64,000 bases of DNA. Source: an uncultured delta proteobacterium (GTDB lineage Bacteria > Desulfobacterota > Binatia > Binatales > Binataceae). The notes beneath the pieces are model-generated. The model worked only from the letters and a program-made list of their open reading frames with translations, ran no database searches and was not told the DNA's origin. Location of the stretch: NCBI GenBank assembly GCA_963710455.1, contig CAVQAG010000017.1:323225-387224 (forward strand), written 5' to 3'. The translations under genes were made by a program, and so were the position numbers. Below are positions 2,899 through 48,787 of this stretch, in pieces. Each line of letters opens with the position of its first letter. Position 1 is the stretch's first letter.

Positions 2899-3047
2899 CT
2901 CCTCGTGACAATTGGGGCAACAATATCGGATGACGCGGCAGGGCGAAAAGTAGGGACTTCTGTTCCCAGCGGGCGCTACGCGGTGGGTGACAGTGGGGCG
3001 GTGCCGGTGTTAGCATCGGGACATCTCAGTCCACGGAGGACGCTGTC

Positions 3048-11649: not shown

Positions 11650-12532
<883 letters not shown>

Positions 12533-12677
12533 GGCGAGCATTCCGCGGCGTCCTGTGGCATACAGCTTAGACCGGGACCCGGCGATCCCTTGTGCGTACG
12601 CACCTGGAAGCGCGTGCGGCTGGACACGGCGCGGCCGGGGGTTGCCGGAAAGCCATAAGATTCGGGGAAGAATAACG

Positions 12678-13892
12678 ATGAACAACGCTGAAATCGTCGA
12701 CCTCGCCCATCAAAATCTCATCAATACCTACGGCTGCGTGCCGCTCGCCTTCGTGCGCGGCACCGGCGCCTACCTTTATGATGCCGACGGCAACCGTTAC
12801 CTGGATTTTTTCTGCGGCCTCGCCGTGACCTCGCTCGGGCACGGCCATCCCCGCGTCGTACGCGCGATCAAGGAGCAGGCCGAGAAGCTGACGCACGTCT
12901 CAAATGTTTTTCACACCGAGCCGATGGCGCGGCTGGCGGCGCGGCTGTGCGGCCATTTCGGCGACGGGCGGGTCTTCTTTTGCAACTCGGGCGCCGAGGC
13001 CAACGAGGCCGCGCTCAAGCTGGCGCGGCGCTGGGGTCACGACCGTGGCGCCGGCCGCTTCGAGGTCGTCTCGACGCTCGGCTCCTTCCATGGCCGCACC
13101 TTTGGCACCCTGAGCGCGACCGGGCAGGAAAAATATCACATCGGTTTCCAGCCGCTGGTGCCGGGCTTTCGCATGGTTCCTTACGATGACGTCGAAGCGC
13201 TGGACAAGGCGGTCCACGACGAGACGATCGCGATCATGCTGGAGCCGGTCCAGGGCGAGGGCGGCGTGGTCACCCCGCGGCTCGACTATCTCAAACGCGT
13301 GCGCGATCTCTGCGATCGGCGCAAAATCCTGCTCATCCTCGACGAAGTTCAGACCGGGATCGGGCGCACGGGCAAGCTCTTCGCCTGGCAGCACGTGGGG
13401 GTCAAGCCGGACATCATGACGCTCGCCAAGGCGCTCGGCGGCGGCTTGCCGATCGGCTCCATGATCGCCAAAAGCGAAATTGCGCAGAGCCTTACGCCGG
13501 GCAGCCACGGCTCGACCTTCGGCGGCAACCCGGTTTCGTGCGCCGCGGCGCTGGGCGTGCTCGACGCACTCGAGCACGACGGCGCGATGGAGAACGCGGC
13601 CAGCGTCGGCGGCTACCTGCTCGAGCGCCTGCGTACATTCGCCAAGGGCTGCGCACGGGTTTCCGAAGTGCGCGGGCTGGGCATGATGATCGGTATCGTG
13701 TTGCACGGCGAGGCCAAGAGCGCCGCCGACGCCTGCCTGCGCGAGCGGCTGCTGGTCAACGCCACGGCCGAGAACGTGCTGCGGCTTTTGCCGCCGCTTA
13801 CGCTGACCCGCGACGAGGCCGACGCCGGGCTCAAGATAATCGAGCGCGCGCTTTCGGCCGCGCCGGCGGCGGCTTCAGCCGCGGCAAGATGA
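12678..13892 (+). CDS. argD: acetylornithine aminotransferase (class III PLP aminotransferase)
   Basis: MNNAEIVDLAHQNLINTYG..., the PLP-lysine region LDEVQTGIGRTGKLFAWQH...MTLAKALGGGLPIG, and placement within the arg cluster. GGGGAAG lies upstream of the ATG at 12678. Confidence 0.9.
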   Translation: MNNAEIVDLAHQNLINTYGCVPLAFVRGTGAYLYDADGNRYLDFFCGLAVTSLGHGHPRVVRAIKEQAEKLTHVSNVFHTEPMARLAARLCGHFGDGRVFFCNSGAEANEAALKLARRWGHDRGAGRFEVVSTLGSFHGRTFGTLSATGQEKYHIGFQPLVPGFRMVPYDDVEALDKAVHDETIAIMLEPVQGEGGVVTPRLDYLKRVRDLCDRRKILLILDEVQTGIGRTGKLFAWQHVGVKPDIMTLAKALGGGLPIGSMIAKSEIAQSLTPGSHGSTFGGNPVSCAAALGVLDALEHDGAMENAASVGGYLLERLRTFAKGCARVSEVRGLGMMIGIVLHGEAKSAADACLRERLLVNATAENVLRLLPPLTLTRDEADAGLKIIERALSAAPAAASAAAR

Positions 13893-14905
13893 CCAAAGAA
13901 GGGCCACAGCGCCGGCTCGCGAATCGAGCGAGCGCGGCTCACAAACGGCGCCTGGCGCGCGCCAAGCGCGACTTTCTGGATCTGGGCTCCCTCAGCTCCG
14001 ATGAGCTGGAGCGTCTGCTCGCGCTGGCGGCGCGCCTGAAGGCCGAGCTGCGCGCCGGACTGGAGCATCCGTATTTGCGCGGCCGCACGCTCGCGATGAT
14101 CTTTCAGAAACCTTCGCTGCGCACGCGGTTGACCTTCGAGACCGGGATGGCGCAGCTTGGCGGACACGCGATCTACCTCGCCCCGCAGGATATAGGGATC
14201 GGCGAACGCGAATCGGTCAAGGACGTGGCGCGCAATCTCTCGCGCTGGGTCGATCTCATCATGATTCGCACTTTCGCCCACGAGATCTGCGTCGAATTGG
14301 CTCTGGAAGCCAGCGTGCCGGTTATCAACGGGCTGACCGACCTGCTGCATCCCTGCCAACTGCTGGCCGACCTGCTGACCCTGCGCGAGCATTTCGGCGA
14401 TCTGAGCAAGCTCCGCATCGCCTACGTCGGCGACGGCTTCAACCTGGCGCAGAGCTGGATCGAGGCCGCCGCCCTGGCGCGTTTTGAGTTGCGGCTCGGC
14501 TACCCGCAGGGGTATGAACCACAGCGCGAGTTCGTCGAGCTGATGCGCCGCGACAAACTCGGCATCGTCACGCACGATCCGGTCGAGGCGGTGCGCGGTG
14601 CCGACGTGATATACACCGACACCTGGACTTCGATGGGCCACGAGAACGAGGCAGCCGAGCGCCGGCGCGACTTCAAAGCCTTCCAGGTCAACCGCGAGCT
14701 GCTCGGCCACGCGCGCCAGGGGGCGGCCGTGATGCACTGTCTGCCGGCGCATCGCGGTGAGGAAATTACCGACGAGGTGCTCGATGGTCCGCGCTCGCTG
14801 GTGCTCGATCAGGCAGAAAACCGACTGCACGCGCAAAAGGCCGTGATGGTCTGGCTGCTGCGCCCGGCGATAATCGGCGCTACCGATGTGTCCGGCACTA
14901 CTTAA
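13888..14905 (+). CDS. argF: ornithine carbamoyltransferase
   Basis: RDFLDLGSLSSDELERLL...FQKPSLRTRLTFETG (STRTR carbamoyl-phosphate motif)...HCLPAHRGEE. Its start overlaps the argD stop (ATGA). Confidence 0.9.
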
Positions 14906-14936
14906 GGCACGGGCACGAATGCCTTAAGATGTCGGT

Positions 14937-16169
14937 GTGGCGACCACTGAAATAAAAAAACTGGTGCTCGCATACTCGGGCGGACTCGACACCTCGGTCA
15001 TCCTGCGCTGGGTGCGCGATTTTTACGGCTGCGAAGTGGTGGCCTATTGCGCCGACGTCGGCCAGGCGGAGGAAACGGCCGGGCTCGAGCAGAAGGCGCT
15101 CGCGACCGGGGCGAGCAAGCTCTATCTCGAAGATCTGCGCGAAGAGTTCGCGGGCGACTTCGTTTTTCCGATGATGCGCGCGAACGCGGTCTACGAGAGC
15201 TACTACCTGCTGGGCACGTCGATCGCACGGCCCGTGATCGCCAAGCGCCAGGTCGAAATCGCGCTGGCCGAGGGCGCCGACGCGGTCGGTCATGGAGCGA
15301 CCGGTAAAGGCAACGACCAGGTGCGTTTCGAGTTCACTTTCGCCCGCCTTGCGCCACAGTTGAAAGTGGTTGCCCCGTGGCGTCATCCGCAATGGCCGTT
15401 TCGCGGACGCGCCGATATGCTCGCCTACGCCAGCGAGAAAAAAATCCCGGTGCCGGTGACGGCCGAGAAGCCTTACTCGATGGATCGCAACCTGGTCCAC
15501 GTCAGCTACGAGGGCGGGATTCTGGAAGATCCGTGGCGCGAGCCGTACGACGATATGTTCCGGCTGACCGCTTCGCCGCAAAGCGCGCCCGACGAGCCCG
15601 AGTATGTAGAGGTCGAATACGCGGGTGGCGATCCGGTGGCGATAAATGGCAAACGATGTTCTCCCGCCGCGCTGATCGAGCACGCCAACACGATCGCCGG
15701 CAAACACGGCGTCGGACGCGTCGACCTGGTCGAGAATCGTTACGTAGGAATTAAATCGCGTGGCGTATACGAGAGCCCGGGCGCGACGATGCTCCTGCAC
15801 GCGCATCGCGCGGTCGAACAACTCGCGCTCGATCGCGAGACCTTGCATCTGCGCGACGCTCTGGTGCCGCGCTACGCCGAGATGGTGTACAACGGACAGT
15901 GGTTTGCGCCCGAGCGCGAGGCGATGCAGGCCCTGGTCGATCGCGCGCAGCAGAGCGTGACGGGCGTCGCGCGCTTGAAGCTCTTCAAAGGCGGGGTTTC
16001 GATCGCCGGGCGCAAATCGCCCAATTCACTCTACGATTCTTCGCTGGCGAGCTTCGATGAGGCCGGCGGCTACCAGCAGGCCGATGCCGACGGTTTCATC
16101 CGGCTCAACTCGATGCGCCTGCGCGCGCTGGCGCGCCTGGGCGGTCGCAAGTCCGAGGACCACCGTTAG
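14937..16169 (+). CDS. argG: argininosuccinate synthase
   Basis: The [12 protein letters not shown]-loop, [15 protein letters not shown], and full-length collinearity (410 aa). GTG start. Confidence 0.95.
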
Positions 16170-18243: not shown

Positions 18244-18307
18244 GCACGTGAGCCTGTTCTATGAGTTCGGCGCGGATGTCCCGCGCGCGAATTAGCCCGG
18301 TGCGATA

Positions 18308-18347
18308 ACCCGTCCCGAAAACCAGTTTCGACAGGGTGGCGGGACGG
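18308..18347. terminator. inverted repeat between the convergent ABC ATPase and YceI genes (9-bp GC-rich stem CCCGTCCCG/CGGGACGGG, 22-nt loop); possible bidirectional terminator
   Basis: Seen directly in the sequence. The loop is long and there is no clear U-tract, so the call is weak. Confidence 0.25.
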
Positions 18348-18362
18348 GAAGCTGAAGCTCAA

Positions 18363-19037
18363 TCAGGGCGAGGCGTTCGAACCTCGCGCGCCTTCTTCGG
18401 CCGTGCCGGCCGGGACCCAGGTGACCCGGCCTTGCGTTTTGATATCGACGTAGACGGTGTCGGCGCAGCGAAAAATCAGAAGGCTCGGGTTCTTCAAGCC
18501 CCACGCGACATACGGTACGGCAAAATGGCCGGTGGCGGTGAATCGGTCGCCGTTTGGCTGCACCATCATATTAAGCGTGATTTCGTGCGGCTTGCCATGC
18601 AGCGTCAGGATGCCGCGAACGGCCGCCGGGAATTCGCCCTCGGCGGAACGTTGACCTTCCGCCTGTTGGGGTATGAACGTGATTTCCGGGTAGCGATCGA
18701 CCTCCAGGATGCTGTCCTTCATTTCGCTGTCGCGCATGTGGCTACCGCTGTCGCCGCTGGTGGCGGAGACAATCACGCTGCCGTCGGCCTTGCCGCTCAC
18801 AGGATCAATCCGGATGATGGCGCGCGCGAGCCGGAACGTTCCATTAGTAATGTGTGGCCAACCCTGGAGAGAGTAGTGTATGTAAGTAGTCGCCGGATTC
18901 AGGTCCAGCACAGCCTGCCGCGCGGTCGACGAGATAGCGAGACCTTTCGAACAGATACTGATTAGCATCGCTAACGTCAGTCCCAACGTAGCGCAGAATC
19001 GGCGGATAGTCATTGTCGTGACCTGAGGCATAATCAA
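18363..19037 (-). CDS. secreted YceI-like polyisoprenoid/lipid-binding protein
   Basis: A signal-peptide-like N-terminus and the YceI-domain pattern (...ADGSVIVSATSGDSG..MRDSEMKDSILEVDRYPEITFI...GILTLHGKPHEITL...). Its start overlaps the stop of the upstream flavoprotein gene by 4 nt. Confidence 0.72.
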   Translation of the reverse strand: MIMPQVTTMTIRRFCATLGLTLAMLISICSKGLAISSTARQAVLDLNPATTYIHYSLQGWPHITNGTFRLARAIIRIDPVSGKADGSVIVSATSGDSGSHMRDSEMKDSILEVDRYPEITFIPQQAEGQRSAEGEFPAAVRGILTLHGKPHEITLNMMVQPNGDRFTATGHFAVPYVAWGLKNPSLLIFRCADTVYVDIKTQGRVTWVPAGTAEEGARGSNASP

Positions 19038-20197
19038 TATGGATAGGCGCGGGCGGCCGATCCGGTGGCCGCGAGCAACCGCCAGGCAAAACCGACCACG
19101 TCCAAAGAGGCGGCTGACGGTCGCAGCGCGCCGACGTGAACCGCCAGCAGCTGACTGAACGTGCGCGGCCGGCCAGACAGCGCGCGCAGCGCACGGCGCC
19201 GCATACCAGCGCTCCTGCCCAGCCCGAGCATCACGCGCGACATCAGCCGGGGCGTCCGACCGATCCGACGATGGGCCGCCTGGTAGATCGTGAGATCGTC
19301 TTTTGACAAGGCGTCGGCCAGAACCGTCGCCTGCCGGAATGCCAGCGCAAGTCCTTCTCCGGTGATCGCGTCGACCGATCCGGAAGCATCTCCGATCAAA
19401 GCCAGCCGTCCTCGGATAACGCGGCGCAACCGCGTAGAGACCGAGACAGCTCCTCGCGTCGAGCCGGTTGGTGTTGCGCCGGCCAGGCGCTGGCCAAGTT
19501 CAGGAAACAGCGACTGTAAGTCCTCGAAACGCAGGCCGGTCCTGCTGCCGATCAGCGCGACGCATATCTCGTCGCGCCCGACCGGAGTTATGTAGGCTTG
19601 GCAACCGTCGCGCCAGTGGACCTCGACGAAGTCGGTCCATGGTGTGACGCGGAAATGCTGACGGAGCCCGACTCGCCTCACGCTGCTCCAGACCGGATCG
19701 AGCGCAGCCCATCGCCGCATCCGCGAATTTGTGCCATCCGCGCCGATCATCCATCGGCAGCGCACGGTTCGCCCGCCAGCTTTGAGGGTGCTGGCGTCGA
19801 TGGTGCGCACCGACGTAGCCCATCGCAATATGACGCCATCCGCCAGCGCGCGCTCGATGAGTAGCTGATGCAGAACCGGACGGCGAATGCCTAAACCGTG
19901 GCTCTCGGGAAAGCAGGCCTGCGCCGACAATCCACCTTCCACAAAACGGATACCGTGAAACGGAAAGCCGTGATCGATGGTTGTGGCTATTCCCAGTTGG
20001 GCGAGCGCGGCCAGGCCGTCGGGCATCAGGCCCTCGCCGCACGCTTTGTCGATCGGCGGTTGCGCGCTATCGGCGACGATAACCTCGAAACCGCGCCGGC
20101 GCGCAGCGATTGCCGCGGCTAGTCCGGCTGGTCCGCCACCGATCACGAAAACGTCGGTTTCGCCTGGCAGTACGTCCATCGCCTCACCAGCGGACAA
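19034..20197 (-). CDS. FAD-dependent oxidoreductase, geranylgeranyl-reductase family
   Basis: The N-terminal dinucleotide-binding fold VFVIGGGPAGLAAAIAARRRGFEVIVAD, ...CGEGL..., and GADG. It overlaps the PKS gene by 14 nt and YceI by 4 nt. Confidence 0.8.
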   Translation of the reverse strand: MSAGEAMDVLPGETDVFVIGGGPAGLAAAIAARRRGFEVIVADSAQPPIDKACGEGLMPDGLAALAQLGIATTIDHGFPFHGIRFVEGGLSAQACFPESHGLGIRRPVLHQLLIERALADGVILRWATSVRTIDASTLKAGGRTVRCRWMIGADGTNSRMRRWAALDPVWSSVRRVGLRQHFRVTPWTDFVEVHWRDGCQAYITPVGRDEICVALIGSRTGLRFEDLQSLFPELGQRLAGATPTGSTRGAVSVSTRLRRVIRGRLALIGDASGSVDAITGEGLALAFRQATVLADALSKDDLTIYQAAHRRIGRTPRLMSRVMLGLGRSAGMRRRALRALSGRPRTFSQLLAVHVGALRPSAASLDVVGFAWRLLAATGSAARAYPY

Positions 20198-21389
20198 GAA
20201 TCATTTCCGAACAGAACCCCGGTCCCATCGCCAGCAATACGCCGAGCGTGCCAGGCGGCGGCCGATGCCGCATTGTCGCGTTTTCGAGAACCAGCAGGAC
20301 CGACGCCGACGACAAGTTGCCGCAGCACCGCAGCGATTCCCACGAGCGATCGAGTTCCCGATCGCCGAGTTCCAGCGCGTCCTGAATAGCCTCGAGCACC
20401 TTGGGTCCGCCGGTGTGAATTAGCCAGTTGCCGATTTCACTACGACCAAGACCAAAGCTCTGGAGAAACGCGTCGACATCGCCCGCAAGATGCCGCTTGA
20501 TTATGTCGGGCAACCTTGGTGAAAGGACGATCCGAAAACCGTCCTGCGAGATCTTCCAACCCATCACGTCTTCGGAATCCGGGTAGAAGATCGACCGGCT
20601 TCCCACGATGTGCGGTCCCGCCGTCTCGGCGCCTTGCGCCTGGTTGGATGCTCGCTGCGAGCCCGCGACAATCACTGCCGCGGCGCCGTCCCCGAAGAGT
20701 CCCGTCGAGATCAGGTTGGCGGTCGAGGTATCGTCGCGCTGGATTGTCAGGGAACATACCTCGACCGCCAGCAGCGCGGCGGCATGTCCGGGATAAGCCA
20801 ATACATAGTCGGCTGCGCGTGTCAGGCCAAGCGCGCCGCCAACGCAGCCAACGCCAAAAATCGGCGTGCGTTTTATATCGGGCCGGAGCCGCATCAGGTT
20901 TATCAGTCTTGCGTCGAGCGACGGGCTCGCGACGCCGGTGACGGAAACCACGAAAAGCGCGTCGAGGTCCTGGCGCTCAAGACCTGCGCGTTCGAGCGCA
21001 CCATCGATCGCCCGCGAGCTCAGTGTCTGCGCAACCTCGAGCCAGGCAGCATTGGTCTCACCCCAATTTTCAAAACGCGCATATCGCTCGAGCGGGAAGG
21101 CCAGGTGACGGTATTCGACGCCGGCTCGAGTATGCAGACGATCCAAAAGTTCGGGCCGCGCCAGGCTTCCGTTCCAATGGTGCTTCAGCGCGGCGGTAAT
21201 TACTTCCTGGGAATAGCGATATTCCGGAAGTGCGCTGGCCACGCCAGCAATCCTGCTCTGTGATATTTCGCCGAGCGGCGATGCTCGATTTACCTCGCGG
21301 CTCGTCGAGTGCGTAGTGCCCGTAAACAGTGTCATGTTACTGCCATTCCTTGTCGCGCCGGCCCGCGGTCTGCCGCAGCGATCGCTCAC
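20184..21389 (-). CDS. type III polyketide synthase (chalcone/stilbene synthase superfamily; alkylresorcinol/alkylpyrone synthase-like)
   Basis: The catalytic triad contexts are present: Cys in FGVGCVGGALGLTRA, His in WLIHTGGPKVLE, Asn in CGNLSSASVLLVLE. About 380 aa of KAS-III fold. Confidence 0.85.
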   Translation of the reverse strand: MSDRCGRPRAGATRNGSNMTLFTGTTHSTSREVNRASPLGEISQSRIAGVASALPEYRYSQEVITAALKHHWNGSLARPELLDRLHTRAGVEYRHLAFPLERYARFENWGETNAAWLEVAQTLSSRAIDGALERAGLERQDLDALFVVSVTGVASPSLDARLINLMRLRPDIKRTPIFGVGCVGGALGLTRAADYVLAYPGHAAALLAVEVCSLTIQRDDTSTANLISTGLFGDGAAAVIVAGSQRASNQAQGAETAGPHIVGSRSIFYPDSEDVMGWKISQDGFRIVLSPRLPDIIKRHLAGDVDAFLQSFGLGRSEIGNWLIHTGGPKVLEAIQDALELGDRELDRSWESLRCCGNLSSASVLLVLENATMRHRPPPGTLGVLLAMGPGFCSEMILVRW

Positions 21390-21446
21390 CGCCGTGGAGT
21401 AAGCACAATGCGCGTATAGCCAACGTCATGTGAATCGGCGAACGTC

Positions 21447-22811
21447 TCAGATGCTGGTCATTACGCGGCCGGCAAGCTGCAAAGCTTCAGACCAGAACGA
21501 CGCCGAAGAATGCATCAGATCCACAACCGCGCCGATCGCCTCAACGTAGTGCCCGAGCTGCGCATCGTTGACTATAAGCGGTGGTGCGACCTTGAGCACC
21601 ATGAAATTATTGCCGCAGATCTGACTGAGTATCCCATGGTCGCGGAATAACCGCATCACCACCACTTGACCGAACATCGCGGGATGAATTCTGGCAAAGG
21701 CCTGAAATGGAACTCGCAGCCGGAACCGGCGCGGCGCCTTGAACTCAATTGCGCTGAGCAGGCCGAGTCCTCGGATCTCGCTCACCATTTCGTGCTTCGC
21801 GAGACGCGCGGCGAGCCGTTTGCGCAGCGCTTCGCCGGCGCTGGCGGCGCGCTCGCCCAGCCGCTCATCCTCGAGCACGTCGAGGGTCGCGAGGCCGGCG
21901 CGCATCGCCAGACTATTTTCACTGTATGTCGAAGTGTGGATGACCGCGCGCTTGAGTGAGCTGTACACCGAGTCGCATATCGCGTCAGACATCAGGACGG
22001 CGCCGCAGGGGACCAGGCCGCCGCTGAGCGCCTTGGCGAGCACGACCATGTCTGGTTCGATCGCAAAGTGATGAGCCGCGAGGAAGCGGCCCGTGCGGTA
22101 CATCCCGGTCTGAACTTCGTCGAGCACCAACAGGGTTCCGTGACGCCGGCAGAGCGCCTGCGCCTGCTGGAGATATTCGCGCGGCGGTACAAGCACGCCG
22201 CTCTCCGCCTGGATCGGTTCGAGAATGAAGGCGGCGAAATGGCGAGTGGCGAGCCTGAGCGCCAATTGGTCGAGGTCGCCGAATGGAACCGCTTCGGTGC
22301 CTGGCAGCATCGGGCCAAAACCCTCGCGCCAGAAGGGGTTCGACATCAGAGAGAGCGCGCCGCAGGTCAATCCGTGAAAGCCGCCGGCGGCGTACAGGAT
22401 GCCCGGCCGCGAGGTGTGGGCGCGCGCAAACTTGAGCACGGTCTCGATCCCTTCACTTCCGGAAGAATCGAAAAAAGCTTTGCTCAGGCGCCCGCCGGCA
22501 CGTTGGCACAGACGCGCGGCGAGATCTCCGGCGAGGTCCGAGACATGGCTCTGCAGCATCGCAGGACCATTGCGGTCCAGTTCGTCTTTGAGTGCCGTGA
22601 TCACTCGGGGATGGTTGTGACCGACATTGTGGACGCAATACCCGGAGATAAAATCCAGAATCCGCCGGCCGTCGGCCGTATGTAGTTCGGCGCCGACGCA
22701 GCTCGCATACTCGACGTTCATCTGCAGAACATCGAGCAGCCGCACCCATTGCGGATTCACGTATCTCTCGTAGAGCGTTTCGCGATCCGCGACGCGCCTT
22801 GCTTCCAACAT
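21447..22811 (-). CDS. class III PLP-dependent aminotransferase (acetylornithine/omega-aminotransferase family)
   Basis: LDEVQTGMYRTGRFLAAHHF...MVVLAKALSGGLVPCGAV (PLP Lys) plus the full class-III fold. It is the first gene of the minus-strand operon, preceded by a 736-bp lower-GC intergenic region. Confidence 0.85.
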   Translation of the reverse strand: MLEARRVADRETLYERYVNPQWVRLLDVLQMNVEYASCVGAELHTADGRRILDFISGYCVHNVGHNHPRVITALKDELDRNGPAMLQSHVSDLAGDLAARLCQRAGGRLSKAFFDSSGSEGIETVLKFARAHTSRPGILYAAGGFHGLTCGALSLMSNPFWREGFGPMLPGTEAVPFGDLDQLALRLATRHFAAFILEPIQAESGVLVPPREYLQQAQALCRRHGTLLVLDEVQTGMYRTGRFLAAHHFAIEPDMVVLAKALSGGLVPCGAVLMSDAICDSVYSSLKRAVIHTSTYSENSLAMRAGLATLDVLEDERLGERAASAGEALRKRLAARLAKHEMVSEIRGLGLLSAIEFKAPRRFRLRVPFQAFARIHPAMFGQVVVMRLFRDHGILSQICGNNFMVLKVAPPLIVNDAQLGHYVEAIGAVVDLMHSSASFWSEALQLAGRVMTSI

Positions 22812-23546
22812 CGGGCTTTTCCTTCGCGCAGCTCGCGCGTGCGCTGCTGTTCAGCGTGTTACGGCGATCTCGAGCTGGTCGAGCGGGCGCCGCCGAAAAT
22901 CAGAATGTAGACACAGGATCTCGTAGAGGTGGAAGTCCTCAGCAGTGCAGGGGCAATCCACTTCACATTCATCCGCAGGATGTCGAAGAAGGACATTTAG
23001 TGCAATTTGTCTTGGCGATTGTAAAGCATCGCGAAAATGCACGGTCCGAGTTCTATGGAATTGAGAGCCATAATCAATATCAACTCTGAGATCGCGTATG
23101 GTCAGTAGGATGGTATATCGTGCGAAGGCACTAGTTGCTGCCATAAAAACACGTCCACGCCGCCCCGTCCTGGAAAATGCGTGCGACATCGGCGACCGAA
23201 GAGACTTCTCTCTCGGATCAGGCAGAGCCGCTTCGGAGCAAGTTATCTGCCATTTGATCGGCGCCTCGGCTGTGGTTCCTTCGCGAGTTTATGCCATCAT
23301 TTATCGTCAAGCAGCTTTTCGCGCGTCCGAAAATTTGAGCGTGGCCAGCGTATCCGTTCAAAATTCTGAACGTACTTTTAAAGGTACCGGTCTGAATTGC
23401 GCGAATACCGTGATGAATTGCAAGCCGTGCCCCCTTTCCGGGCCGGGCATCGCACTTGCGTTTGCGATATGACGGCTCAGGGGATCGTTCCGCGCAGGTT
23501 CGAGGTGCCGATGACTCACGATAAGCCGACCAGTCGTTTTTAAGAG

Positions 23547-24860
23547 ATGACATCTCCAGGAATAATGAACGGCGACGGCGGCTCTGATCTGGCAGTGAAT
23601 GAGTACCAGTGTTTTCGGCGCCAGGAGGTGTTCTTTGCGCTCCTCAATCTCGTACTAATCGGCGCGCTTCTGACGCTGCAGGAGGTTTCCAGGGCCGTCC
23701 GCGGCAGACCCGCGGCGTCGGTTGTCATAGTCCTGGCGGTGGGCTTTACGATCCAGGCGGCTTATGTCACGTGGCTATACGGAGAGACCGCGCTGCTGTC
23801 GCTCCCACAGCGCCAAGCTTTGACGTTATGGGCGCTGGTGTTCAACTCAGTGCTCGCGCTTGTCCTCACCTCTCTGACTATTCGCGGAGACACCGCGTAC
23901 TACGCCCTGATGCTGCTGCCGATACTGGAGGCCGCATTCAGGTTCGGCCTGGGCGCAACCATCGCGATGGCAGTGCTGGCGGACTTCGTCTGCTTTCTCG
24001 GCGCGTATGGGATGCGATTCGGTGAGTATATCGAGGCCGGAGCCATGTCGGTTATTTACACGGTAATGGGCGTGCTCGTATGGCTGTTGATAAACAATGC
24101 GCGCGAGCGGGAGGCGAGATTTGTGCGCAACCTGCAAGAGCTCGAACACACTCGGCAGCAGCTATTCTCTGAAGAAAAGCTTGCCGCGGTGGGCCGTCTA
24201 TCGAGGGCTATCGCACACGAAATTCGCAATCCGGTGGCGATGATTTCCAGCTCGCTCGCAACCGCAACACGCGCCGGACAAGGAGAGGCAGAACGAAGGG
24301 AAATGTTTGCGATCGCGGCCAAGGAGGCCGCGCGTCTGGAGCGTTTGACCAACGACTTCCTCGTATATGCGCGCCCGCGCGCGGCGCAGATCGCGCGCGC
24401 AAATGTTACCGATACTCTCAACTACGTCGCGTCCGTTACCCGGGCTCATGCGGCGAACAAGGGCGTGGTGATCGATGTCCGTGCGCAGGGCGATATGGAA
24501 GGGGATTTTGATCCGTCACAGATTCAACAGGCACTATTGAACCTGGTGCTCAACGCAATCGACGCCTGTAGAGGCGGCGACTCGGTGCAGTTGCAGGCGC
24601 AGGCGAAATTACCTGGCGTTATTTGCATTGATGTCATCGATCCGGTCGGCCCAATACCCGAGGAAGCCGTTAACCGCATTTTCGAACCGCTATTCACTAC
24701 CAAGCAAGGCGGGAACGGACTCGGCCTGGCGATCGCGCGCAATATCGCCCGGGCGCATGGAGGCGACATCATGCTCAGGATCAACGAGCCTGCGCAGGTA
24801 TGTTTTTCGATTGAAATTCCGGCGGTTGCCAACAGCTCAGACGGGCTTCAGAGAGTCTAA
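23547..24860 (+). CDS. sensor histidine kinase with N-terminal 5-6 TM sensing domain (HisKA + HATPase_c)
   Basis: A multi-TM N-terminus, H-box AIAHEIRNPVAMI, N-box LLNLVLNAIDA, and G-boxes ...GNGLGLAI.... It is immediately followed by an NtrC-family regulator. Confidence 0.8.
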   Translation: MTSPGIMNGDGGSDLAVNEYQCFRRQEVFFALLNLVLIGALLTLQEVSRAVRGRPAASVVIVLAVGFTIQAAYVTWLYGETALLSLPQRQALTLWALVFNSVLALVLTSLTIRGDTAYYALMLLPILEAAFRFGLGATIAMAVLADFVCFLGAYGMRFGEYIEAGAMSVIYTVMGVLVWLLINNAREREARFVRNLQELEHTRQQLFSEEKLAAVGRLSRAIAHEIRNPVAMISSSLATATRAGQGEAERREMFAIAAKEAARLERLTNDFLVYARPRAAQIARANVTDTLNYVASVTRAHAANKGVVIDVRAQGDMEGDFDPSQIQQALLNLVLNAIDACRGGDSVQLQAQAKLPGVICIDVIDPVGPIPEEAVNRIFEPLFTTKQGGNGLGLAIARNIARAHGGDIMLRINEPAQVCFSIEIPAVANSSDGLQRV

Positions 24861-24861
24861 A

Positions 24862-26271
24862 ATGGGCAGGATATTGGTCGTCGATGACGAGCCGAGCATG
24901 CGGCGAATCCTCGTTTCGAATCTGAGGCAGGAACAGCATGAACTGGTCGAGGCAAACGGCGTCCGCGATGCTCGGCGTGTTCTCGCGGAGTGCGGGTTGG
25001 ACGCAGTAATTACGGATCAAAAGATGGGCGACGGCGAAGGCCTGGAGGTTCTGGCGGCGGTCCATGAAACCGACCCTGCCTTGTCCGTGGTTTTTCTAAC
25101 TGCCTTTGCGACGATCGAACTTGCGGTCGAAAGCATGCGGCGTGGAGCGTTTGATTTTGTCACCAAGCCTTTTATACCTGAAGCGCTGCTCGCCTCGGCG
25201 GCTCGCGCTGTCGAGCACACGCTGCTGCTGCGTGAAAACGAAAGGCTCCGCGACACGGTGCTTCGGCTTGAAGGTTCCTCGGAGATCGCCGGGCGAAGCG
25301 CCATAATTCGGCGGCTGCGAGAGCAAATCGCGCGCGTAGCGCCAACCAGCGCAACCGTTCTCATTGCGGGCGAAACGGGGACCGGTAAGGAATTGGTGGC
25401 CCGTGCGATTCATTACAGCAGCCCTCGATCCGCAAAACCTTTCGTGGCCGTGAACTGCGCGGCGTTTACCGAGACGCTTTTGGAAAGCGAACTGTTCGGA
25501 CACGAGCGGGGAGCATTTACCGGCGCCAGCCACGCGCGCGAAGGCCTGTTCGAGGCGGCGCATGAAGGCTCGCTCTTTCTCGACGAGGCGGGCGAGATGT
25601 CGATGGCGGCGCAGGCCAAGTTGTTGCGCGTGCTGACGGACGGTTTGGTGCTGCGAATCGGTTCGACCAAGCCGCGCCAGGTCGATGTTCGTCTGATTGT
25701 TGCTACGCATCGCGACTTGCGGCAACGAGCGCAGGAAGGTCTCTTTCGTGAAGATTTATACTATCGGCTCGCCGTAGTGCCGCTGTTCGTTCCTGCTCTT
25801 CGCGAACATCTGGAAGACATCCCGGAGCTATGCACGCTCTTTTTGGCGCAAGCGGCGCGCGATCTCAAGGTGTCTCCCCGCAAGATGGGCGCCGACGCGA
25901 TGCGCGCGCTGATGAACTACGATTTTCCCGGCAACATACGCGAACTGCGCAATCTCATCGAGCGCGCGTGTATTCTCTCGGCCGGTGATGAAATCACCGC
26001 CGATAATTTTCCCGTAGCCGCATCAACTCGCTCGCCAAATATCCCGGTGCCGCTTACTCCATCCGCGCTCAGCCCCGATCATCTGGCAGAGCTGATCCCC
26101 GAGACCTCCGATCTACGAGAATTTCTGGCAGCGGTCGAAGCGGCGATAATCCAGCGGTCGCTTAAGATGACCGGCGGCGCACAGGCCGAGGTGGCGCGGC
26201 GACTTGGACTTTCACGAAGCCATCTTTCTTACAAGCTGGCGAAGCATCGCATTAAGAGCGCGACGAGCTGA
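24862..26271 (+). CDS. sigma-54-dependent response regulator (NtrC/Fis family: REC + AAA+ sigma-54 activator + HTH)
   Basis: Receiver ILVVDDEP...DQKMGDGEG, Walker A GETGTGKE, the GAFTGA sigma-54 contact motif (ERGAFTGA), and the C-terminal Fis-type HTH ...VARRLGLSRSHLSYKL. Confidence 0.9.
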   Translation: MGRILVVDDEPSMRRILVSNLRQEQHELVEANGVRDARRVLAECGLDAVITDQKMGDGEGLEVLAAVHETDPALSVVFLTAFATIELAVESMRRGAFDFVTKPFIPEALLASAARAVEHTLLLRENERLRDTVLRLEGSSEIAGRSAIIRRLREQIARVAPTSATVLIAGETGTGKELVARAIHYSSPRSAKPFVAVNCAAFTETLLESELFGHERGAFTGASHAREGLFEAAHEGSLFLDEAGEMSMAAQAKLLRVLTDGLVLRIGSTKPRQVDVRLIVATHRDLRQRAQEGLFREDLYYRLAVVPLFVPALREHLEDIPELCTLFLAQAARDLKVSPRKMGADAMRALMNYDFPGNIRELRNLIERACILSAGDEITADNFPVAASTRSPNIPVPLTPSALSPDHLAELIPETSDLREFLAAVEAAIIQRSLKMTGGAQAEVARRLGLSRSHLSYKLAKHRIKSATS

Positions 26272-26528: not shown

Positions 26529-27928
26529 ATGCGTCATCTGAATATCCGGCGGGTGCTGGTGCTGGCACTCCTTCTCCGCGCCTTACTCCCGATAGCGGGA
26601 TATCTGTATACGCGTGACGTTACCATCGTCTACACGCCTGACACAGCCTCCTATCTACTACCGGCCCGCGAACTAATCGCTCATCACCGGTTTTTTTCCG
26701 ACGGAACACCGGAAATCGTTCGAACTCCCGGTTATCCCCTGCTGCTCACGGCTGGGCTGCTGTTGGGTCATCCGGAATTCGTTACGATAGCGCTCCAGAT
26801 CCTGCTTAGTTGCCTCACGGTGTTCATGGTATATAAGACAGCTCGTGAGATGTTCGAGAGACGAACGAATAGCTCTCATTGCTGCGGCATTGTATGCGCT
26901 AGAGCCATTATCGATCTTGTTCTCAAGCCTGTTAGCTTCTGAAACTCTGTTCGCCGCGATAGTAATAGTCGGCTTTTACTACCTAGTGAGATACTTGAAA
27001 CGGCAATCGCCGGCATGCCTGCTAGCCTCGGGAGCCGCGCTGGCCGCTTCGGTATACATTCGGCCGGTAGGCTACTTTTTGCCAGTGATAATAGCTGTCG
27101 GGCTGACGGCGTGGGCTGCGGTCACGGCCCAGCAAAACAGGCCTCGGCGCATAGCTCAAGCCCTGGGCTTCGTTATCGTTTCCTTTGCGTTGACCAGTCT
27201 GTGGCAGGTTCGGAACGAGGCCGAGGCTGACTTATCCTGGTTTTTCTGCTATCGCCAGCGACAACATGTACTTCATTTTGGCGGCCTCGGTTCTGGCCGC
27301 CGAACAGCATGTGCCCTATTACGGGATGAGAGACCGCTTGGGCTATCAGAACCCGCGCGCTTATTTCCGGGAGCATCCTGAACAGAAGACTTGGTCTGTA
27401 GAGAAAAGAACCAATTATCTGACTCGGACCGCTGAGCATATTTTGCTGGGCGATTCGCTGACCTATGCGTGGATTTACTTCGACGGCGTTCTTCGAGGAA
27501 CCTTTGATCCTGGCTCTACCGAGTTTCTGCGGTTTTTCGACCTCTATCCAAGGGACGGCGGTCTTCTGACGGTTGCAGTCGACAAGGGCAGAATCGCAAC
27601 CGTCGAAGCGCTTTATGCCTATCCACTACTCTTTTGGAGCACCGCCATGATGCTCCTGATGCTGCTGATATACCTCTCGTCTGCGTGCGTCACACTCTGC
27701 AGCCCGGCAATCCAGGACCCTTCGATTCTGGCCGCGTGGTTAATAGCTAGCTACTATATGGCTATTGCGGGAGGACCCGGTGACTGGGGTCGGTTCCGGC
27801 ATCCCGTTATGCCGATCATCTGCACCCTGGCCGGCTATGGTCTATACGCAGTCTGGAGCCGGTTGCGCCACGACCACCGCACCGTCTCCAAAGCGCGAGA
27901 GATGATTCTCAGGTCCATCGCAAACTAG
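26529..27928 (+). pseudogene. GT-C-fold membrane glycosyltransferase (PMT_2/ArnT-like, GT39/GT83-type), split over three frames by two frameshifts
   Basis: The three consecutive ORFs 26529..26942, 26845..27381 and 27266..27928 are each hydrophobic and collinear with one polytopic protein. The family motif ...TPGYPLLLTAGLLLG... is present. Junctions lie near 26870-26880 and 27225-27240. Confidence 0.5.
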
Positions 27929-31186: not shown

Positions 31187-31201
31187 TGGCACAACGGTTG
31201 C
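31187..31201 (+). promoter_or_regulatory. sigma-54 (RpoN) -24/-12 promoter TGGCACaacggTTGCT upstream of the Wzy/O-antigen-ligase-like gene
   Basis: Exact match to the TGGCAC-N5-TTGCW consensus, seen directly. It is located ~90 bp upstream of the ATG at 31291 in a 460-bp intergenic region. Confidence 0.7.
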
Positions 31202-31290: not shown

Positions 31291-32823
31291 ATGGTGAAAA
31301 TGGCGGGACTCGACGCAACCGTGTTTACGTCGCCACCGCGCGAGCGCCCGAAGCCATTCGCCGCGCGGCTGATCATTCCTGCCGTCGCGGCGGGGCTGCT
31401 TCTGATCAGCCTTCAGGTCGAGCAAAGCAAGATGCTGATGGTGGTCGGTGGCCTCGGCGCGTTGCTCGTGGTTTTTTACGGCCTGCCGTTCGTGACGCGC
31501 CATCGTGACTGGCTGATTTGTGCCCTATTGATGGTGCTTCTTATCACCGGCATCTCGTTTCTCGATCCGACGACTCGCTCGCTCTTCCATTATTCAGCGC
31601 TCGCGCTGCTTTGTTTTCCGGTTCTAGGTATCGCGGTTCGCTCGGACGTTTTCCGCAGTGGCGGATTCCGCCTTTACACGGTCTATTTCCTATGGGCGGC
31701 GTGTACGATCCCTTATTCACTGGCGCCGGAATTCTCGTTGGCCCGGCTGGCTGAAGCATTTCTGACTTTGGCCGCGCTGGCGGCGATCGTGGTGGATGTT
31801 CGCGAGGCAGATGGCCCGAGGCGTCTCTTATCTCACATTCTGGTGGCCGCCGGAATAATACTTTTCGTAAACGTGCTTGCGGCCTTGATCTTGCCCCATA
31901 GCATCACGTGGCTGAGCCCGTTGGAAAGCTATAGCGCCGACGAATTGCAAAAGATGCAGAAGCTCGGAATTTCGCCGGCGGGCATGGACCGCTTCAGAGG
32001 GCTTCTCAGCGGGCCGAACGACTTGGGCGGGCTGATGTTGATCGTGGTTGGCCCGGCGCTCGTGTGTTGGCAGAGCGCGAGCAAACGCCAGCGCGCGCTT
32101 TTGGCGGCATTGGTGGCGGGGGCGGTGTCCCTGGCAGCGCTGGCCGATTCTCGATCTCCGTTTGTCGCACTGGCTATCGGTGGCGCGTGGTACTCGGTCT
32201 GGAGGTGGCGTGCGCGCGGGATTCTGGTATTGGCGGCGGCCACCACGATGCTCGGTGCGGCACTCCTTGTCTACTCGCATGGCGACCTGGGCGCGTACAT
32301 GGGACGCGATGTGGGTACCCTGACCGGACGTACCGATATCTGGAGCTTCGTAATACAGCAAATAAAAGCCCGACCCATCCTGGGCTATGGATACGAGGTA
32401 TCGGGGGCAATCTTCCAGAGCGTGTACTTTCCCGTCTGGTGGGGCCCTTGGGACCTCGGGCCGCATAGCTCACTGCATAATGGGTACCTTGATCATGCCG
32501 TCGGTGTAGGCATACCCGCCACCCTATTCTGGCTTTACATCATCCTCGAGCCATGGGTATTCGTGTTCCGCCGGTCCGGCGATAGTTGGAACCTTAAGCC
32601 GATTTTTTTCCTTATAGTTGTACCGATCCTGATCAATAACTTTTCGGAGGCACTTCTAGGCGATTTTACCGATAGCGTGGGCATCGTATTCGGCCTGGTC
32701 TGGGCGCTCGGCGAACGCTACCGCTTACTTGCCTTGCAACGGGCCGACACCGTCCGCGCCGAAACACTGGCGAGCCTGCCAGGGTCGCTAGCCGCATTGG
32801 CGGAGGCCGGTGAGGCACGTTGA
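31291..32823 (+). CDS. O-antigen ligase / Wzy_C-family membrane protein (polysaccharide or O-glycosylation ligase-like)
   Basis: About 12 TM segments with a Wzy_C-type periplasmic loop (...GRTDIWSFVIQQIKARPILGYGYEV...). 510 aa. Confidence 0.8.
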   Translation: MVKMAGLDATVFTSPPRERPKPFAARLIIPAVAAGLLLISLQVEQSKMLMVVGGLGALLVVFYGLPFVTRHRDWLICALLMVLLITGISFLDPTTRSLFHYSALALLCFPVLGIAVRSDVFRSGGFRLYTVYFLWAACTIPYSLAPEFSLARLAEAFLTLAALAAIVVDVREADGPRRLLSHILVAAGIILFVNVLAALILPHSITWLSPLESYSADELQKMQKLGISPAGMDRFRGLLSGPNDLGGLMLIVVGPALVCWQSASKRQRALLAALVAGAVSLAALADSRSPFVALAIGGAWYSVWRWRARGILVLAAATTMLGAALLVYSHGDLGAYMGRDVGTLTGRTDIWSFVIQQIKARPILGYGYEVSGAIFQSVYFPVWWGPWDLGPHSSLHNGYLDHAVGVGIPATLFWLYIILEPWVFVFRRSGDSWNLKPIFFLIVVPILINNFSEALLGDFTDSVGIVFGLVWALGERYRLLALQRADTVRAETLASLPGSLAALAEAGEAR

Positions 32824-48772: not shown

Positions 48773-48787
48773 TGGCACGGCGCTTGC
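48773..48787 (+). promoter_or_regulatory. sigma-54 (RpoN) -24/-12 promoter CTGGCACGgcgcTTGCC, 38 bp upstream of the ExeA-like ATPase gene
   Basis: Exact match to the extended consensus YTGGCACG-N4-TTGCW, seen directly. It is divergent from the sigma-54 activator gene across a 1.3-kb mostly non-coding region. Confidence 0.75.

Follow-up and report, generated by a model that had tools for sequence, protein, structure and literature searches.

The locus comprises four genes, all on the minus strand of the 64-kb window, as the whole stretch of 64,000 nucleotides analyzed here is called (Table 1); the DNA stems from a MAG of Candidatus Binataceae. They encode a class-III aminotransferase (AT), a type III polyketide synthase (PKS), an FAD-containing flavoprotein and a predicted exported lipocalin of the YceI family. 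An earlier note on this DNA had described four co-directional genes with these positions, and the open reading frames were recovered where it placed them. It had also reported overlaps of 14 nt between PKS and flavoprotein and of 4 nt between flavoprotein and YceI. These overlaps exist for the maximal ORFs read from the outermost TTG starts (20197..19034 for the flavoprotein; 19037..18363, starting at TTG 19037, for YceI), but disappear with the publicly called starts, where the flavoprotein ATG lies 4 nt past the PKS TGA and the YceI ATG 20 nt past the flavoprotein TGA. The three genes are closely packed whichever set of starts is used. Alternative PKS starts are GTG 21389 (maximal ORF 21389..20184) and GTG 21242 (public gene call, 352 aa), and depending on this choice the gap between the AT and PKS genes spans 57 to 204 nt, which could accommodate an internal promoter. 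The lower-GC region upstream of the AT gene, given as 736 bp in the note, measures 735 bp and has a GC content of 0.50-0.575 compared with about 0.60-0.67 in genes. None of the related loci has a homologue of the two ORFs (112 and 111 aa) inside this region, and an Rfam search of it returned no credible match. A GC-rich hairpin downstream of YceI marks a possible end of the operon; the fold of positions 18244-18375 has a minimum free energy of -48.9 kcal/mol (z = -1.65), which is a weak indication, and there is no U-tract. The genes argF and argG are located 2-5 kb from the cassette.

Table 1. Features of the cassette and its surroundings (positions in the window).
Feature	Position	Strand	Details
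Class-III (omega-type) aminotransferase (AT)	21447..22811	-	454 aa
Type III PKS, long-chain alkylresorcinol/alkylpyrone type	20184..21335	-	ATG 21335, 383 aa
FAD flavoprotein, SrsC/PkqC type	19034..20179	-	ATG 20179, 381 aa (public call)
Predicted exported YceI-family lipocalin	18363..19013	-	ATG 19013, 216 aa (public call)
Lower-GC divergent intergenic/leader region	22812..23546	.	735 bp, between AT operon and histidine kinase gene
GC-rich hairpin	18309..18348	-	9-bp stem CCCGUCCCG/CGGGACGGG, between convergent YceI and ABC-ATPase genes
Sigma-54 (-24/-12) promoter-like motif	23238..23252	-	TGGCAGATAACTTGC, 427 nt upstream of AT start codon
Sensor histidine kinase	23547..24860	+	HisKA and HATPase_c (Pfam), divergent from cassette
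Sigma-54-dependent response regulator	24862..26271	+	Response_reg, Sigma54_activat (2.7e-69) and HTH_8

The PKS was identified by its Pfam matches to Chal_sti_synt_N (1.8e-14, 54.2 bits) and Chal_sti_synt_C (4.3e-16, 59.7 bits), each with a cut-off of 27, and it also matches FAE1_CUT1_RppA. The catalytic triad noted previously is intact: C164 (GCVGG), H307 (HTGGP) and N340 (GNLSS), in the numbering of the 383-aa protein, align with those of Mycobacterium tuberculosis PKS11, which is the closest solved relative (2.5e-96 over the full length). With the PKS of a Streptomyces srs-like operon the protein shares 49% identity, and its more than 8000 homologues carry the JGI label 'alkylresorcinol/alkylpyrone synthase'. 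Residue W260 (motif MGW) stands opposite a tryptophan in the alignments with both PKS11 and the Streptomyces operon PKS and is a candidate equivalent of position 281 in ArsB, where tryptophan favors aldol (resorcinol) over lactone (pyrone) cyclization (PMC9927152). By homology the enzyme is thus of the long-chain alkylresorcinol/alkylpyrone type predicted in the earlier note, a class assignment that does not divide resorcinol from pyrone formation. PKS11 (PDB 4jao) has been described as an alkylpyrone synthase and stands in another gene context; its identity to the window PKS is only about 50%, so that starter and cyclization specificity are not transferable.

The flavoprotein had been read as a reductase of the geranylgeranyl reductase (GGR) family. 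Its best NCBIfam match is indeed GG-red-SF (TIGR02032), at 111.9 bits and below the cut-off of 158.8, whereas the domain matches of AT, PKS and YceI all exceeded their Pfam thresholds. The MenJ equivalog scores 71 bits against a cut-off of 700. The invariant residues include GGGPAG, the motif K45-A-C47-G-E49-G and GDASGSVDAITGEG; the cysteine in the second of these presumably resembles the active-site cysteine of GGR. A Streptomyces operon with the order PKS-ICMT-FMO encodes an 'FAD-dependent monooxygenase' that shares 42% identity (3e-50) with the window protein and gives the same sub-threshold GG-red-SF match; with the flavoprotein of a Holophagales locus (L047), whose layout is PKS-ICMT-x-FLAV, the identity is 49%. 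The window protein thus represents the flavoprotein that commonly accompanies the synthase in bacterial type III PKS operons, and the view of the earlier note that known cassettes do not include such an enzyme could not be upheld. The assignment to the SrsC/PkqC type was made through this operon architecture rather than through the SrsC and PkqC sequences. The top structural neighbors of the predicted fold are flavin halogenases, 3NIX (a structural-genomics flavoprotein of unknown function) and squalene monooxygenase; the fold neither separates hydroxylases from reductases nor singles out GGR. The halogenase motif WxWxIP was not found in the protein. The corresponding strand, which we take to be the expected place of this motif, reads C-Q-A-Y-I-T-P and contains no tryptophan, which does not support an identity as flavin-dependent halogenase. 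In srsABC- and pkqABC-type systems the flavoprotein has been credited with hydroxylating the ring, a step that leads to quinones (PMC9927152, PMC6669644). By analogy, the window flavoprotein is predicted to act on the PKS product by hydroxylating its aromatic ring.

The YceI domain (PF04264) was detected at 2.6e-16 and 60.8 bits (cut-off 23.7), and similarity to solved members of the family is weak (5ixh, 5.8e-4). The N-terminus, MTIRRFCATLGLTLAMLISICSKGLA, is hydrophobic and signal-like. In a crude hydropathy test, an N-terminal hydrophobic segment was present in 42 of 51 YceI orthologues compared with none of 31 aminotransferases. The window protein, with its putative export signal, shares the YceI domain with BcnA, E. 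coli YceI, N. meningitidis GNA1030 and T. thermophilus TT1927b, but its partner is a type III PKS-flavoprotein pair, whereas yceI is usually accompanied by a cytochrome b561 gene. Members of this family hold ubiquinone-8, octaprenylphenol or octaprenyl phosphate in the tunnel of the beta-barrel (PMC9113575). A role as carrier that binds the amphiphilic product, as proposed in the note, is therefore plausible by analogy.

The AT matches Aminotran_3 (PF00202) at 1.6e-86 and 291 bits (cut-off 30.5). Its best PDB match is 4ppm (8e-83), which we take to be PigE; putrescine and ornithine aminotransferases come next. Among NCBIfam models, the transaminase domain of PigE (NF053554) again ranks first, with 402.5 bits against a cut-off of 850. 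The PLP lysine, K260 in VLAKALSGG, is invariant in the family and aligns with LSKSLSGG of PigE, with which the AT shares the whole length of the transaminase domain. The alignment covers profile positions 378-729 of 837 and PDB residues 396-846 only, so that the AT lacks the N-terminal domain of about 390 aa that provides PigE with thioester-reductase activity. Furthermore, the family has an invariant lysine of its own, K407 in VLK(V/I)APPL, where PigE has an arginine. Neither the equivalog score nor the two-domain architecture of PigE proper was found. The curated models for other class-III enzymes also scored below their cut-offs and were rejected as identities: ArgD-type acetylornithine (277 vs 457 for NF002874 and 267 vs 410 for TIGR00707), ornithine (256 vs 378), putrescine (259 vs 612) and GABA aminotransferase (212 vs 724). 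The family is strongly conserved, with at least 70% identity across phyla, and is labelled 'ornithine--oxo-acid transaminase' by JGI. The substrate of PigE is a medium-chain lipidic molecule that the enzyme aminates at an aldehyde group (PMC7065143, PMC8341465), and both PigE and the putrescine aminotransferases, the nearest relatives of the AT, act on aldehydes and terminal amines (PMC8341465, PMC7065143).

Conservation of the gene order was assessed in 85 PKS-anchored loci, 71 of which had enough flanking sequence for layouts to be counted. The flavoprotein adjoins the PKS in 64 of the 85 loci, a YceI gene follows the flavoprotein in 51, and an AT is also present in about 30. Among the 71 adequately flanked loci, 25 have the layout PKS-FLAV-YceI, nine have AT-PKS-FLAV, and 12 show AT-PKS-FLAV-YceI in the order of the window. 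The earlier note had declared that its idea should fall if the four genes were not syntenic in any relative; instead they recur in Alphaproteobacteria, Acidobacteriota, Dormibacterota, one Deltaproteobacteria MAG and Binatia-like metagenome contigs. Such recurrence across phyla puts the arrangement far beyond chance, and the cassette is genuine and conserved across several phyla of soil bacteria. In a check anchored on the AT, all four independently sampled homologues, selected solely for the length of their contigs, lay less than 5 kb from a PKS and a flavoprotein; two of these loci are reordered to PKS-FLAV...AT-YceI, which indicates that the co-occurrence survives rearrangement. AT, PKS and flavoprotein are always together in the clade containing the window. 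The AT is missing from the neighborhood in about 60% of the PKS loci, however, so the core pathway can do without a local AT. Most Acidobacteriota loci are of this kind, PKS-FLAV(-YceI) without a nearby AT, and are interleaved with AT-bearing loci in the PKS tree.

The closest known systems are srsABC of Streptomyces griseus, pkqABC of Mycobacterium smegmatis and Streptomyces sp. MNU77, hidABC for cyanobacterial hierridin and the planctomycete mtr-fdo-t3pks, all of which couple a type III PKS of the alkylresorcinol-synthase type to a homologous FAD flavoprotein, as in the window. According to published reports, operons of the PKS-ICMT-FMO type produce quinones derived from alkylresorcinols (PMC9927152, PMC6669644, PMC10896814), and the expected product class, long-chain phenolic lipids or alkylquinones, is the same for the window cassette. 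In contrast to the srs/pkq operons, whose hosts are Actinobacteria and which lack YceI and AT, cassettes of the window type occur in Gram-negative soil phyla and carry YceI and AT at the frequencies given above. An ICMT-family O-methyltransferase (SrsB/PkqB) was not found in the 64-kb window by tblastn with the Streptomyces ICMT protein; matches were obtained in L047, L086 and L087 only, and 84 of the 85 related loci are without ICMT. What sets this undescribed variant of the srs/pkq "polyketide quinone" operon apart is thus the presence of an AT, the regular pairing with YceI and the lack of an ICMT methyltransferase. The pairing with YceI has a partial precedent: the planctomycete-related, pentacistronic type III PKS operon of 'Saltatorellus ferox' encodes a 'lipid/isoprenoid-binding protein' and a lipoprotein (PMC10896814). 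This was the sole mention of a type III PKS with such a binding protein found in the literature. Compared by its description only, the operon differs in having two methyltransferases, no flavoprotein and no AT (PMC10896814). No paper was found on the combination of AT, type III PKS, flavoprotein and YceI.

The cassette is probably a phenolic-lipid operon, a variant of srsABC/pkqABC/hidABC in which the PKS product would be converted to a hydroxyquinone and passed to YceI, with an additional amination. The earlier note had instead envisaged a GGR-type flavoprotein that saturates double bonds of an isoprenoid or alkenyl side chain, so that YceI receives a phenolic or pyrone lipid that is both saturated and aminated. 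We regard this as unlikely. In addition to the sub-threshold GG-red-SF score, the flavoprotein's Streptomyces counterpart with the same weak match belongs to an srsABC-type operon, in which hydroxylation has been assigned to the flavoprotein (PMC6669644, PMC9927152). The structural neighbors of the window flavoprotein are at least as close to monooxygenases and halogenases as to the GGR family (TIGR02032; MenJ, archaeal GGR, ChlP), and its genomic partners are those of SrsC-type hydroxylases. No prenyltransferase was detected in the window by tblastn with the UbiA of the Streptomyces operon, and fatty-acyl starters are already saturated. As the flavoprotein is homologous to srs/pkq-type hydroxylases, the 'saturated' chemistry is not the best reading.

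The remaining alternatives turn on the AT, which might be a housekeeping enzyme that transaminates ornithine, acetylornithine or putrescine and happens to lie beside a phenolic-lipid operon whose pathway is PKS-FLAV-YceI alone. The JGI label, the high conservation across phyla, the vicinity of argF and argG and the many PKS loci without a nearby AT are in line with this, but the curated ArgD, OAT and putrescine aminotransferase models all score well under their cut-offs, the four sampled homologues stand beside a PKS and flavoprotein in two gene orders and different genomic backgrounds, and the family has its own signature in K407. A housekeeping role is accordingly quite improbable. We give even less credence to an alkaloid-type pathway comparable to that of prodigiosin MAP or plant coniine, in which a linear poly-beta-keto product is aminated by the AT and cyclized through an imine, and the flavoprotein then oxidizes or reduces the N-heterocycle to an alkyl-pyridine, -piperidine or -pyrrole. 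It would account for the constant association of AT, PKS and flavoprotein in the window's clade and for the similarity to PigE, which belongs to a pathway that links a transamination with a flavin oxidase (PMC7065143). However, the interleaving of AT-free PKS-FLAV loci with AT-bearing ones indicates that the substrate of the flavoprotein is made without the AT. Moreover, the flavoprotein is of the SrsC type and its Pfam matches include no amine-oxidase family of the PigB type, the PKS groups with ring-forming alkylresorcinol/pyrone synthases, and the reductase domain of PigE is absent from the AT.

The surroundings of the cassette suggest a lineage-specific regulation by sigma-54. Motifs of the type TGGCA-N6-TTGC occur as three exact matches in 64 kb, compared with 0.65 expected, and one of them precedes the AT gene (Table 1). 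In the related locus L011, TGGCAATCTAATTGC is found 112 nt upstream of the AT, together with the same divergent kinase/regulator pair. With at most one mismatch, the motif is present in 5 of 31 AT-bearing loci against a background of 6%, and is thus a lineage-specific feature only. Orthologues of the histidine kinase lie directly 3' of YceI in L003-L005 (74-75% identical) and divergently upstream in L011 (57%), and those of the response regulator adjoin the cassette in L003 and L004 (76%), L005 (62%) and L011 (68%). Judged from this context, the histidine kinase probably regulates the cassette in the Binataceae lineage, where expression would start from the putative sigma-54 promoter under control of the adjacent kinase and sigma-54 response regulator.

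For the phenolic-lipid operon favored here, the most likely product is a long-chain phenolic or quinone lipid. The PKS, with its chemistry deduced from its family, would load a long-chain fatty acyl thioester, extend it with malonyl-CoA and cyclize it to a 5-alkylresorcinol, possibly also to an alkylpyrone. The SrsC/PkqC-type flavoprotein would add a ring hydroxyl group, as suggested by the characterized homologous operons, and the resulting alkyl-benzenetriol would oxidize to a hydroxy-alkyl-benzoquinone. As ICMT is absent, the O-methylation step of srs/pkq is missing. The YceI protein, predicted to be exported, would capture this amphiphilic lipid, as quinone or quinol, beyond the cytoplasmic membrane, where the lipid may serve as a carrier-held redox lipid, an antioxidant or an envelope lipid; such a ligand is suggested by analogy with other members of the family. 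The PigE/putrescine-aminotransferase-like AT, linked to the cassette by its gene neighborhood, would perform an amination tied to the pathway. In the most economical scheme, the hydroxyquinone or resorcinol would react as its keto tautomer, whose carbonyl the AT might aminate so that the ring carries an amino group. The AT may instead provide or withdraw an amine or aldehyde partner. We know of no transaminase that acts on a hydroxyquinone ring, and the AT step is therefore speculative. Only a small chance is given to the specific outcome that an AT in place of the methyltransferase produces an amino-substituted long-chain alkyl-benzoquinone held by the exported YceI protein. If true, this compound would be a polyketide counterpart of rhodoquinone, with an amino group where srs/pkq products have a methoxy group, and in its YceI-bound form it would act as a low-potential electron carrier or as a periplasmic radical scavenger. 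Such an aminoquinone system would then have a broad distribution in Acidobacteriota, Alphaproteobacteria, Binatota and Dormibacterota.

Four consecutive minus-strand open reading frames (ORFs), as claimed in the earlier note, were found with unchanged boundaries, and Pfam profiles bore out its domain calls for the class-III aminotransferase (AT), the type III polyketide synthase (PKS) and the lipocalin YceI (see table). Its claim that the last three genes overlap by 14 nt and 4 nt holds only for maximal ORFs with TTG starts. In the public gene calls for the contig the PKS comprises 352 amino acids, the flavoprotein 381 (ATG at 20179, 4 nt past the PKS stop) and YceI 216 (ATG at 19013), and the overlaps disappear. 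The three genes are closely packed whichever starts are used, and the spacing between AT and PKS is 57-204 nt. The reported lower-GC stretch upstream of AT was also recovered (22812..23546, 735 bp, GC 0.50-0.575 compared to about 0.60-0.67 in the genes). None of the related loci contains a homologue of the two ORFs within it (112 and 111 amino acids), which were therefore not counted as genes. A scan for sigma-70 promoters and intrinsic terminators yielded nothing exceeding shuffled expectation, and the hairpin 3' of YceI is weak (z = -1.65) and lacks a U-tract. The single match in an Rfam scan of positions 18000-23700, npcTB_6715, was sub-threshold (20 bits vs 72, E 0.053), falls antisense within the AT coding sequence and was dismissed as a chance hit.

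Coordinates and annotation of the cassette, the adjoining regulators and exact sigma-54 motifs in the window
Feature	Coordinates	Strand	Annotation
AT, class-III aminotransferase	22811..21447	-	Pfam Aminotran_3, 1.6e-86
Type III PKS	21389..20184	-	Pfam Chal_sti_synt_N/C and FAE1_CUT1_RppA
Flavoprotein	20197..19034	-	Pfam FAD_binding_3; best NCBIfam match GG-red-SF, 111.9 bits, below cut-off of 158.8
YceI	19037..18363	-	Pfam YceI, 60.8 bits, above cut-off
Histidine kinase	23547..24860	divergent, upstream of cassette	Profile annotation
σ54-dependent response regulator	24862..26271	divergent, upstream of cassette	Profile annotation
Exact −24/−12 motif TGGCAGATAACTTGC	23252..23238	- (operon strand)	427 nt upstream of AT start
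Exact sigma-54 motif	31187..31201	+	~90 nt before Wzy_C/O-antigen-ligase-like gene 31291..32823
Exact sigma-54 motif	48773..48787	+	~40 nt before ORF 48826..49611

The flavoprotein had been regarded as a geranylgeranyl reductase (GGR)-like enzyme, and the cassette as novel partly on the grounds that known PKS cassettes lack such a partner. A protein search against annotated plasmids returned only two matches, both from Streptomyces. One of them is the 'FAD-dependent monooxygenase' of an operon with a type III PKS, an ICMT-family O-methyltransferase and an adjoining UbiA prenyltransferase, the PKS-ICMT-monooxygenase order being that of srsABC and pkqABC (PMC6669644, PMC9927152). This monooxygenase is 42% identical to the window flavoprotein (3e-50), shares the motifs DKACGEG and GDAxGxVDAxTGEG with it and likewise matches the GGR superfamily profile GG-red-SF below threshold. 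A Holophagales locus inside the PKS clade of the window (L047) is arranged PKS-ICMT-(625 aa)-flavoprotein, and its flavoprotein is 49% identical to that of the window over the full length. Based on this homology, the 'GGR-type' enzyme is assigned as the usual flavoprotein partner in bacterial type III PKS operons, and the novelty argument fails on this point. The flavoprotein partner in S. griseus, M. smegmatis and Streptomyces MNU77 has been assigned a ring hydroxylation that turns (methylated) alkylresorcinols into alkylquinones (PMC9927152, PMC6669644, PMC10896814). A GGR-like reductase is thus less well supported. Fold comparison of the modelled flavoprotein does not distinguish a hydroxylase from a reductase, as the scores of halogenases, squalene epoxidase, GGR and PHBH differ by only a few Z units, and public names of its homologues conflict ('menaquinone-9 β-reductase', 'polyprenyl-methoxyphenol hydroxylase-like', 'FAD-dependent monooxygenase'). 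The Cys motif presumably resembles that of GGR.

The catalytic triad claimed for the PKS is present (Cys164/His307/Asn340). Its closest match is PKS11 of M. tuberculosis (2.5e-96, full length), it is 49% identical to the PKS of the Streptomyces operon, and its family of more than 8000 proteins carries the JGI label alkylresorcinol/alkylpyrone synthase. The N-terminus of YceI resembles a signal sequence; such a segment was recorded for 42 of 51 YceI orthologues but for none of 31 aminotransferases. Known ligands of YceI lipocalins are ubiquinone-8, octaprenylphenol or octaprenyl phosphate (PMC9113575).

The best match of AT is the transaminase domain of PigE (4ppm, 8e-83), with putrescine and ornithine aminotransferases next. 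PigE acts on a lipidic intermediate, whose aldehyde it aminates, and also carries an N-terminal reductase domain (PMC8341465, PMC7065143); the window AT lacks that domain. All curated equivalog models tested against AT (PigE, ArgD, OAT, putrescine aminotransferase and GABA aminotransferase) scored below cut-off. An alkaloid-type route akin to MAP or coniine biosynthesis is less well supported than the quinone route proposed below. In the AT family, K260 serves as the PLP lysine and K407, within 'VLK(V/I)APPL', is invariant. PigE has an arginine at the latter position, and so do OAT-type class-III aminotransferases, in which it is the carboxylate-binding residue. K407 may represent a substrate-recognition signature of the family. 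The genes argF (ornithine carbamoyltransferase) and argG are located 2-5 kb downstream of the cassette (13538..16169, + strand); the Arg/Gly-rich N-terminal extension in the maximal ORF of argF is spurious. Due to this proximity, AT could be misannotated as an arginine-pathway enzyme. Proteins that cluster with ArgG and with the flavoprotein bear the name Candidatus Binataceae, which assigns the window to a Binatota MAG.

Synteny in relatives, a check proposed in the earlier note, was analyzed in 85 PKS-anchored loci, 80 from species-representative genomes and five further ones (e.g. Beijerinckia indica and a metagenome relative), and the arrangement proved to be conserved across phyla. In 64 loci the PKS is directly followed by the flavoprotein gene, in 51 YceI comes next, and about 30 have AT as a neighbor. 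Among the 71 loci with sufficient flanks, the architectures were PKS-flavoprotein-YceI (25), the window order AT-PKS-flavoprotein-YceI (12), PKS alone (12), AT-PKS-flavoprotein (9), PKS-flavoprotein (5) and PKS-YceI (5). The complete set occurs in Acidobacteriota (Bryobacterales, Terriglobales), one Dormibacterota MAG and one Deltaproteobacteria MAG. B. indica (CP001016) harbors AT-PKS-flavoprotein, and the metagenome relative, whose PKS is 73% identical, AT-(286-aa TPR protein)-PKS-flavoprotein-YceI-histidine kinase-σ54 regulator. In the reverse sampling, four AT homologues were chosen solely for sitting on long contigs. Each of them has a PKS-flavoprotein pair no more than 5 kb away, in two cases in the order PKS-flavoprotein…AT-YceI. 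The association of AT with the pair is thus retained despite rearrangement and argues strongly for a functional link; that AT is an unrelated housekeeping enzyme is less well supported. In a rough neighbor-joining tree the window PKS falls into a clade (Proteobacteria loci, L003, L016) in which AT is universal. Acidobacteriota loci with and without AT are interleaved, so that a separate clade of AT-linked PKSs was not supported within this phylum. Close homologues number in the thousands for each of the three core proteins, and the cassette variant is very abundant in soil metagenomes.

The ICMT methyltransferase, a defining component of srs and pkq operons, is missing from the window and was found in L047 only among the 85 related loci. 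There, the 625-aa ORF (11844..13721) lies between methyltransferase and flavoprotein of an srs-like operon. Related loci contain a TPR protein (20-21 loci), a lactonase-type β-propeller (13-14) and RND and ABC exporters. In B. indica (L001, 1235..6422), genes for MlaA, DUF2147, two TPR proteins, a class-I SAM methyltransferase, DUF4399 and DUF2141 precede the cassette, and a transposase follows the flavoprotein at the expected place of YceI; further loci from Alphaproteobacteria also contain the methyltransferase and the two TPR proteins. Some AT-PKS-flavoprotein loci encode a DUF3108 protein at the position of YceI (L088, 9766..10659; L089, 9691..10560; L007); it may have a similar role as an exported binding protein. 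One locus only, L090, has a Peptidase_U32 gene right after the PKS-flavoprotein pair (2033..3289). The O2-independent ubiquinone hydroxylases UbiU/UbiV belong to this family, and the gene is in line with a quinone-type product.

Orthologues of the divergent histidine kinase and σ54 regulator accompany the cassette in its closest relatives. The window contains three exact −24/−12 motifs (0.65 expected), all upstream of co-oriented ORFs; the two outside the cassette hint at a sigma-54 envelope regulon. In L011, a related locus with the same regulator pair, such a motif is located 112 nt upstream of AT. However, with up to one mismatch it occurs in only 5 of 31 AT-bearing loci, against a background of 6%. 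The idea that the motif belongs to the cassette in general was therefore rejected, and σ54 control would be lineage-specific. A motif with one mismatch (AGGCATGAGCTTTGC) lies 52 nt upstream of a PMT_2/ArnT-like glycosyltransferase gene (26529..27928, + strand) and is exact at the orthologue in L003-L005. The gene is split into three reading frames (26529-26861, 26902-27243, 27233-27871), whereas the L004 orthologue is intact (467 aa); the two frameshifts indicate a pseudogene or an assembly error.

Type III PKS-flavoprotein operons make polyketide quinones, which Actinobacteria use as membrane-protective lipids or as alternative electron carriers in respiration. The cassette, whose genes are probably co-transcribed, is expected to work like the srsABC/pkqABC/hidABC family, with YceI and AT as additional regular partners. 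The PKS would convert a long-chain acyl thioester and malonyl-CoA to an alkylresorcinol, possibly also an alkylpyrone. Ring hydroxylation by the SrsC-type flavoprotein and oxidation of the product would lead to a hydroxy-alkylbenzoquinone, presumably unmethylated because the ICMT methyltransferase is absent, and exported YceI would hold this amphiphile. AT may take the place of the srs/pkq methyltransferase in a pathway-linked amination, for which we infer a ring carbonyl tautomer as the most economical substrate. Literature on YceI or aminotransferases with type III PKSs (the latter in Acidobacteria) and on type III PKSs of Binatota yielded no description of the combination, as the earlier note had anticipated. 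What comes closest is a single planctomycete-related type III PKS operon for which a 'lipid/isoprenoid-binding protein' is mentioned (PMC10896814).

In the cassette a defined biosynthetic pathway comes with an exported lipocalin of its own, which could close a long-standing gap, the cognate ligand of YceI proteins. The family-specific active-site signature of AT points to undescribed nitrogen-containing phenolic lipids or quinones. The cassette is widespread in soil phyla that have received little study. It is found in Acidobacteriota, Binatota and Dormibacterota, which are hard to culture, and also in Alphaproteobacteria such as B. indica, a culturable species with a complete genome. It is testable in B. 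indica or heterologous hosts, and its study could reveal nitrogen-containing polyketide quinones.
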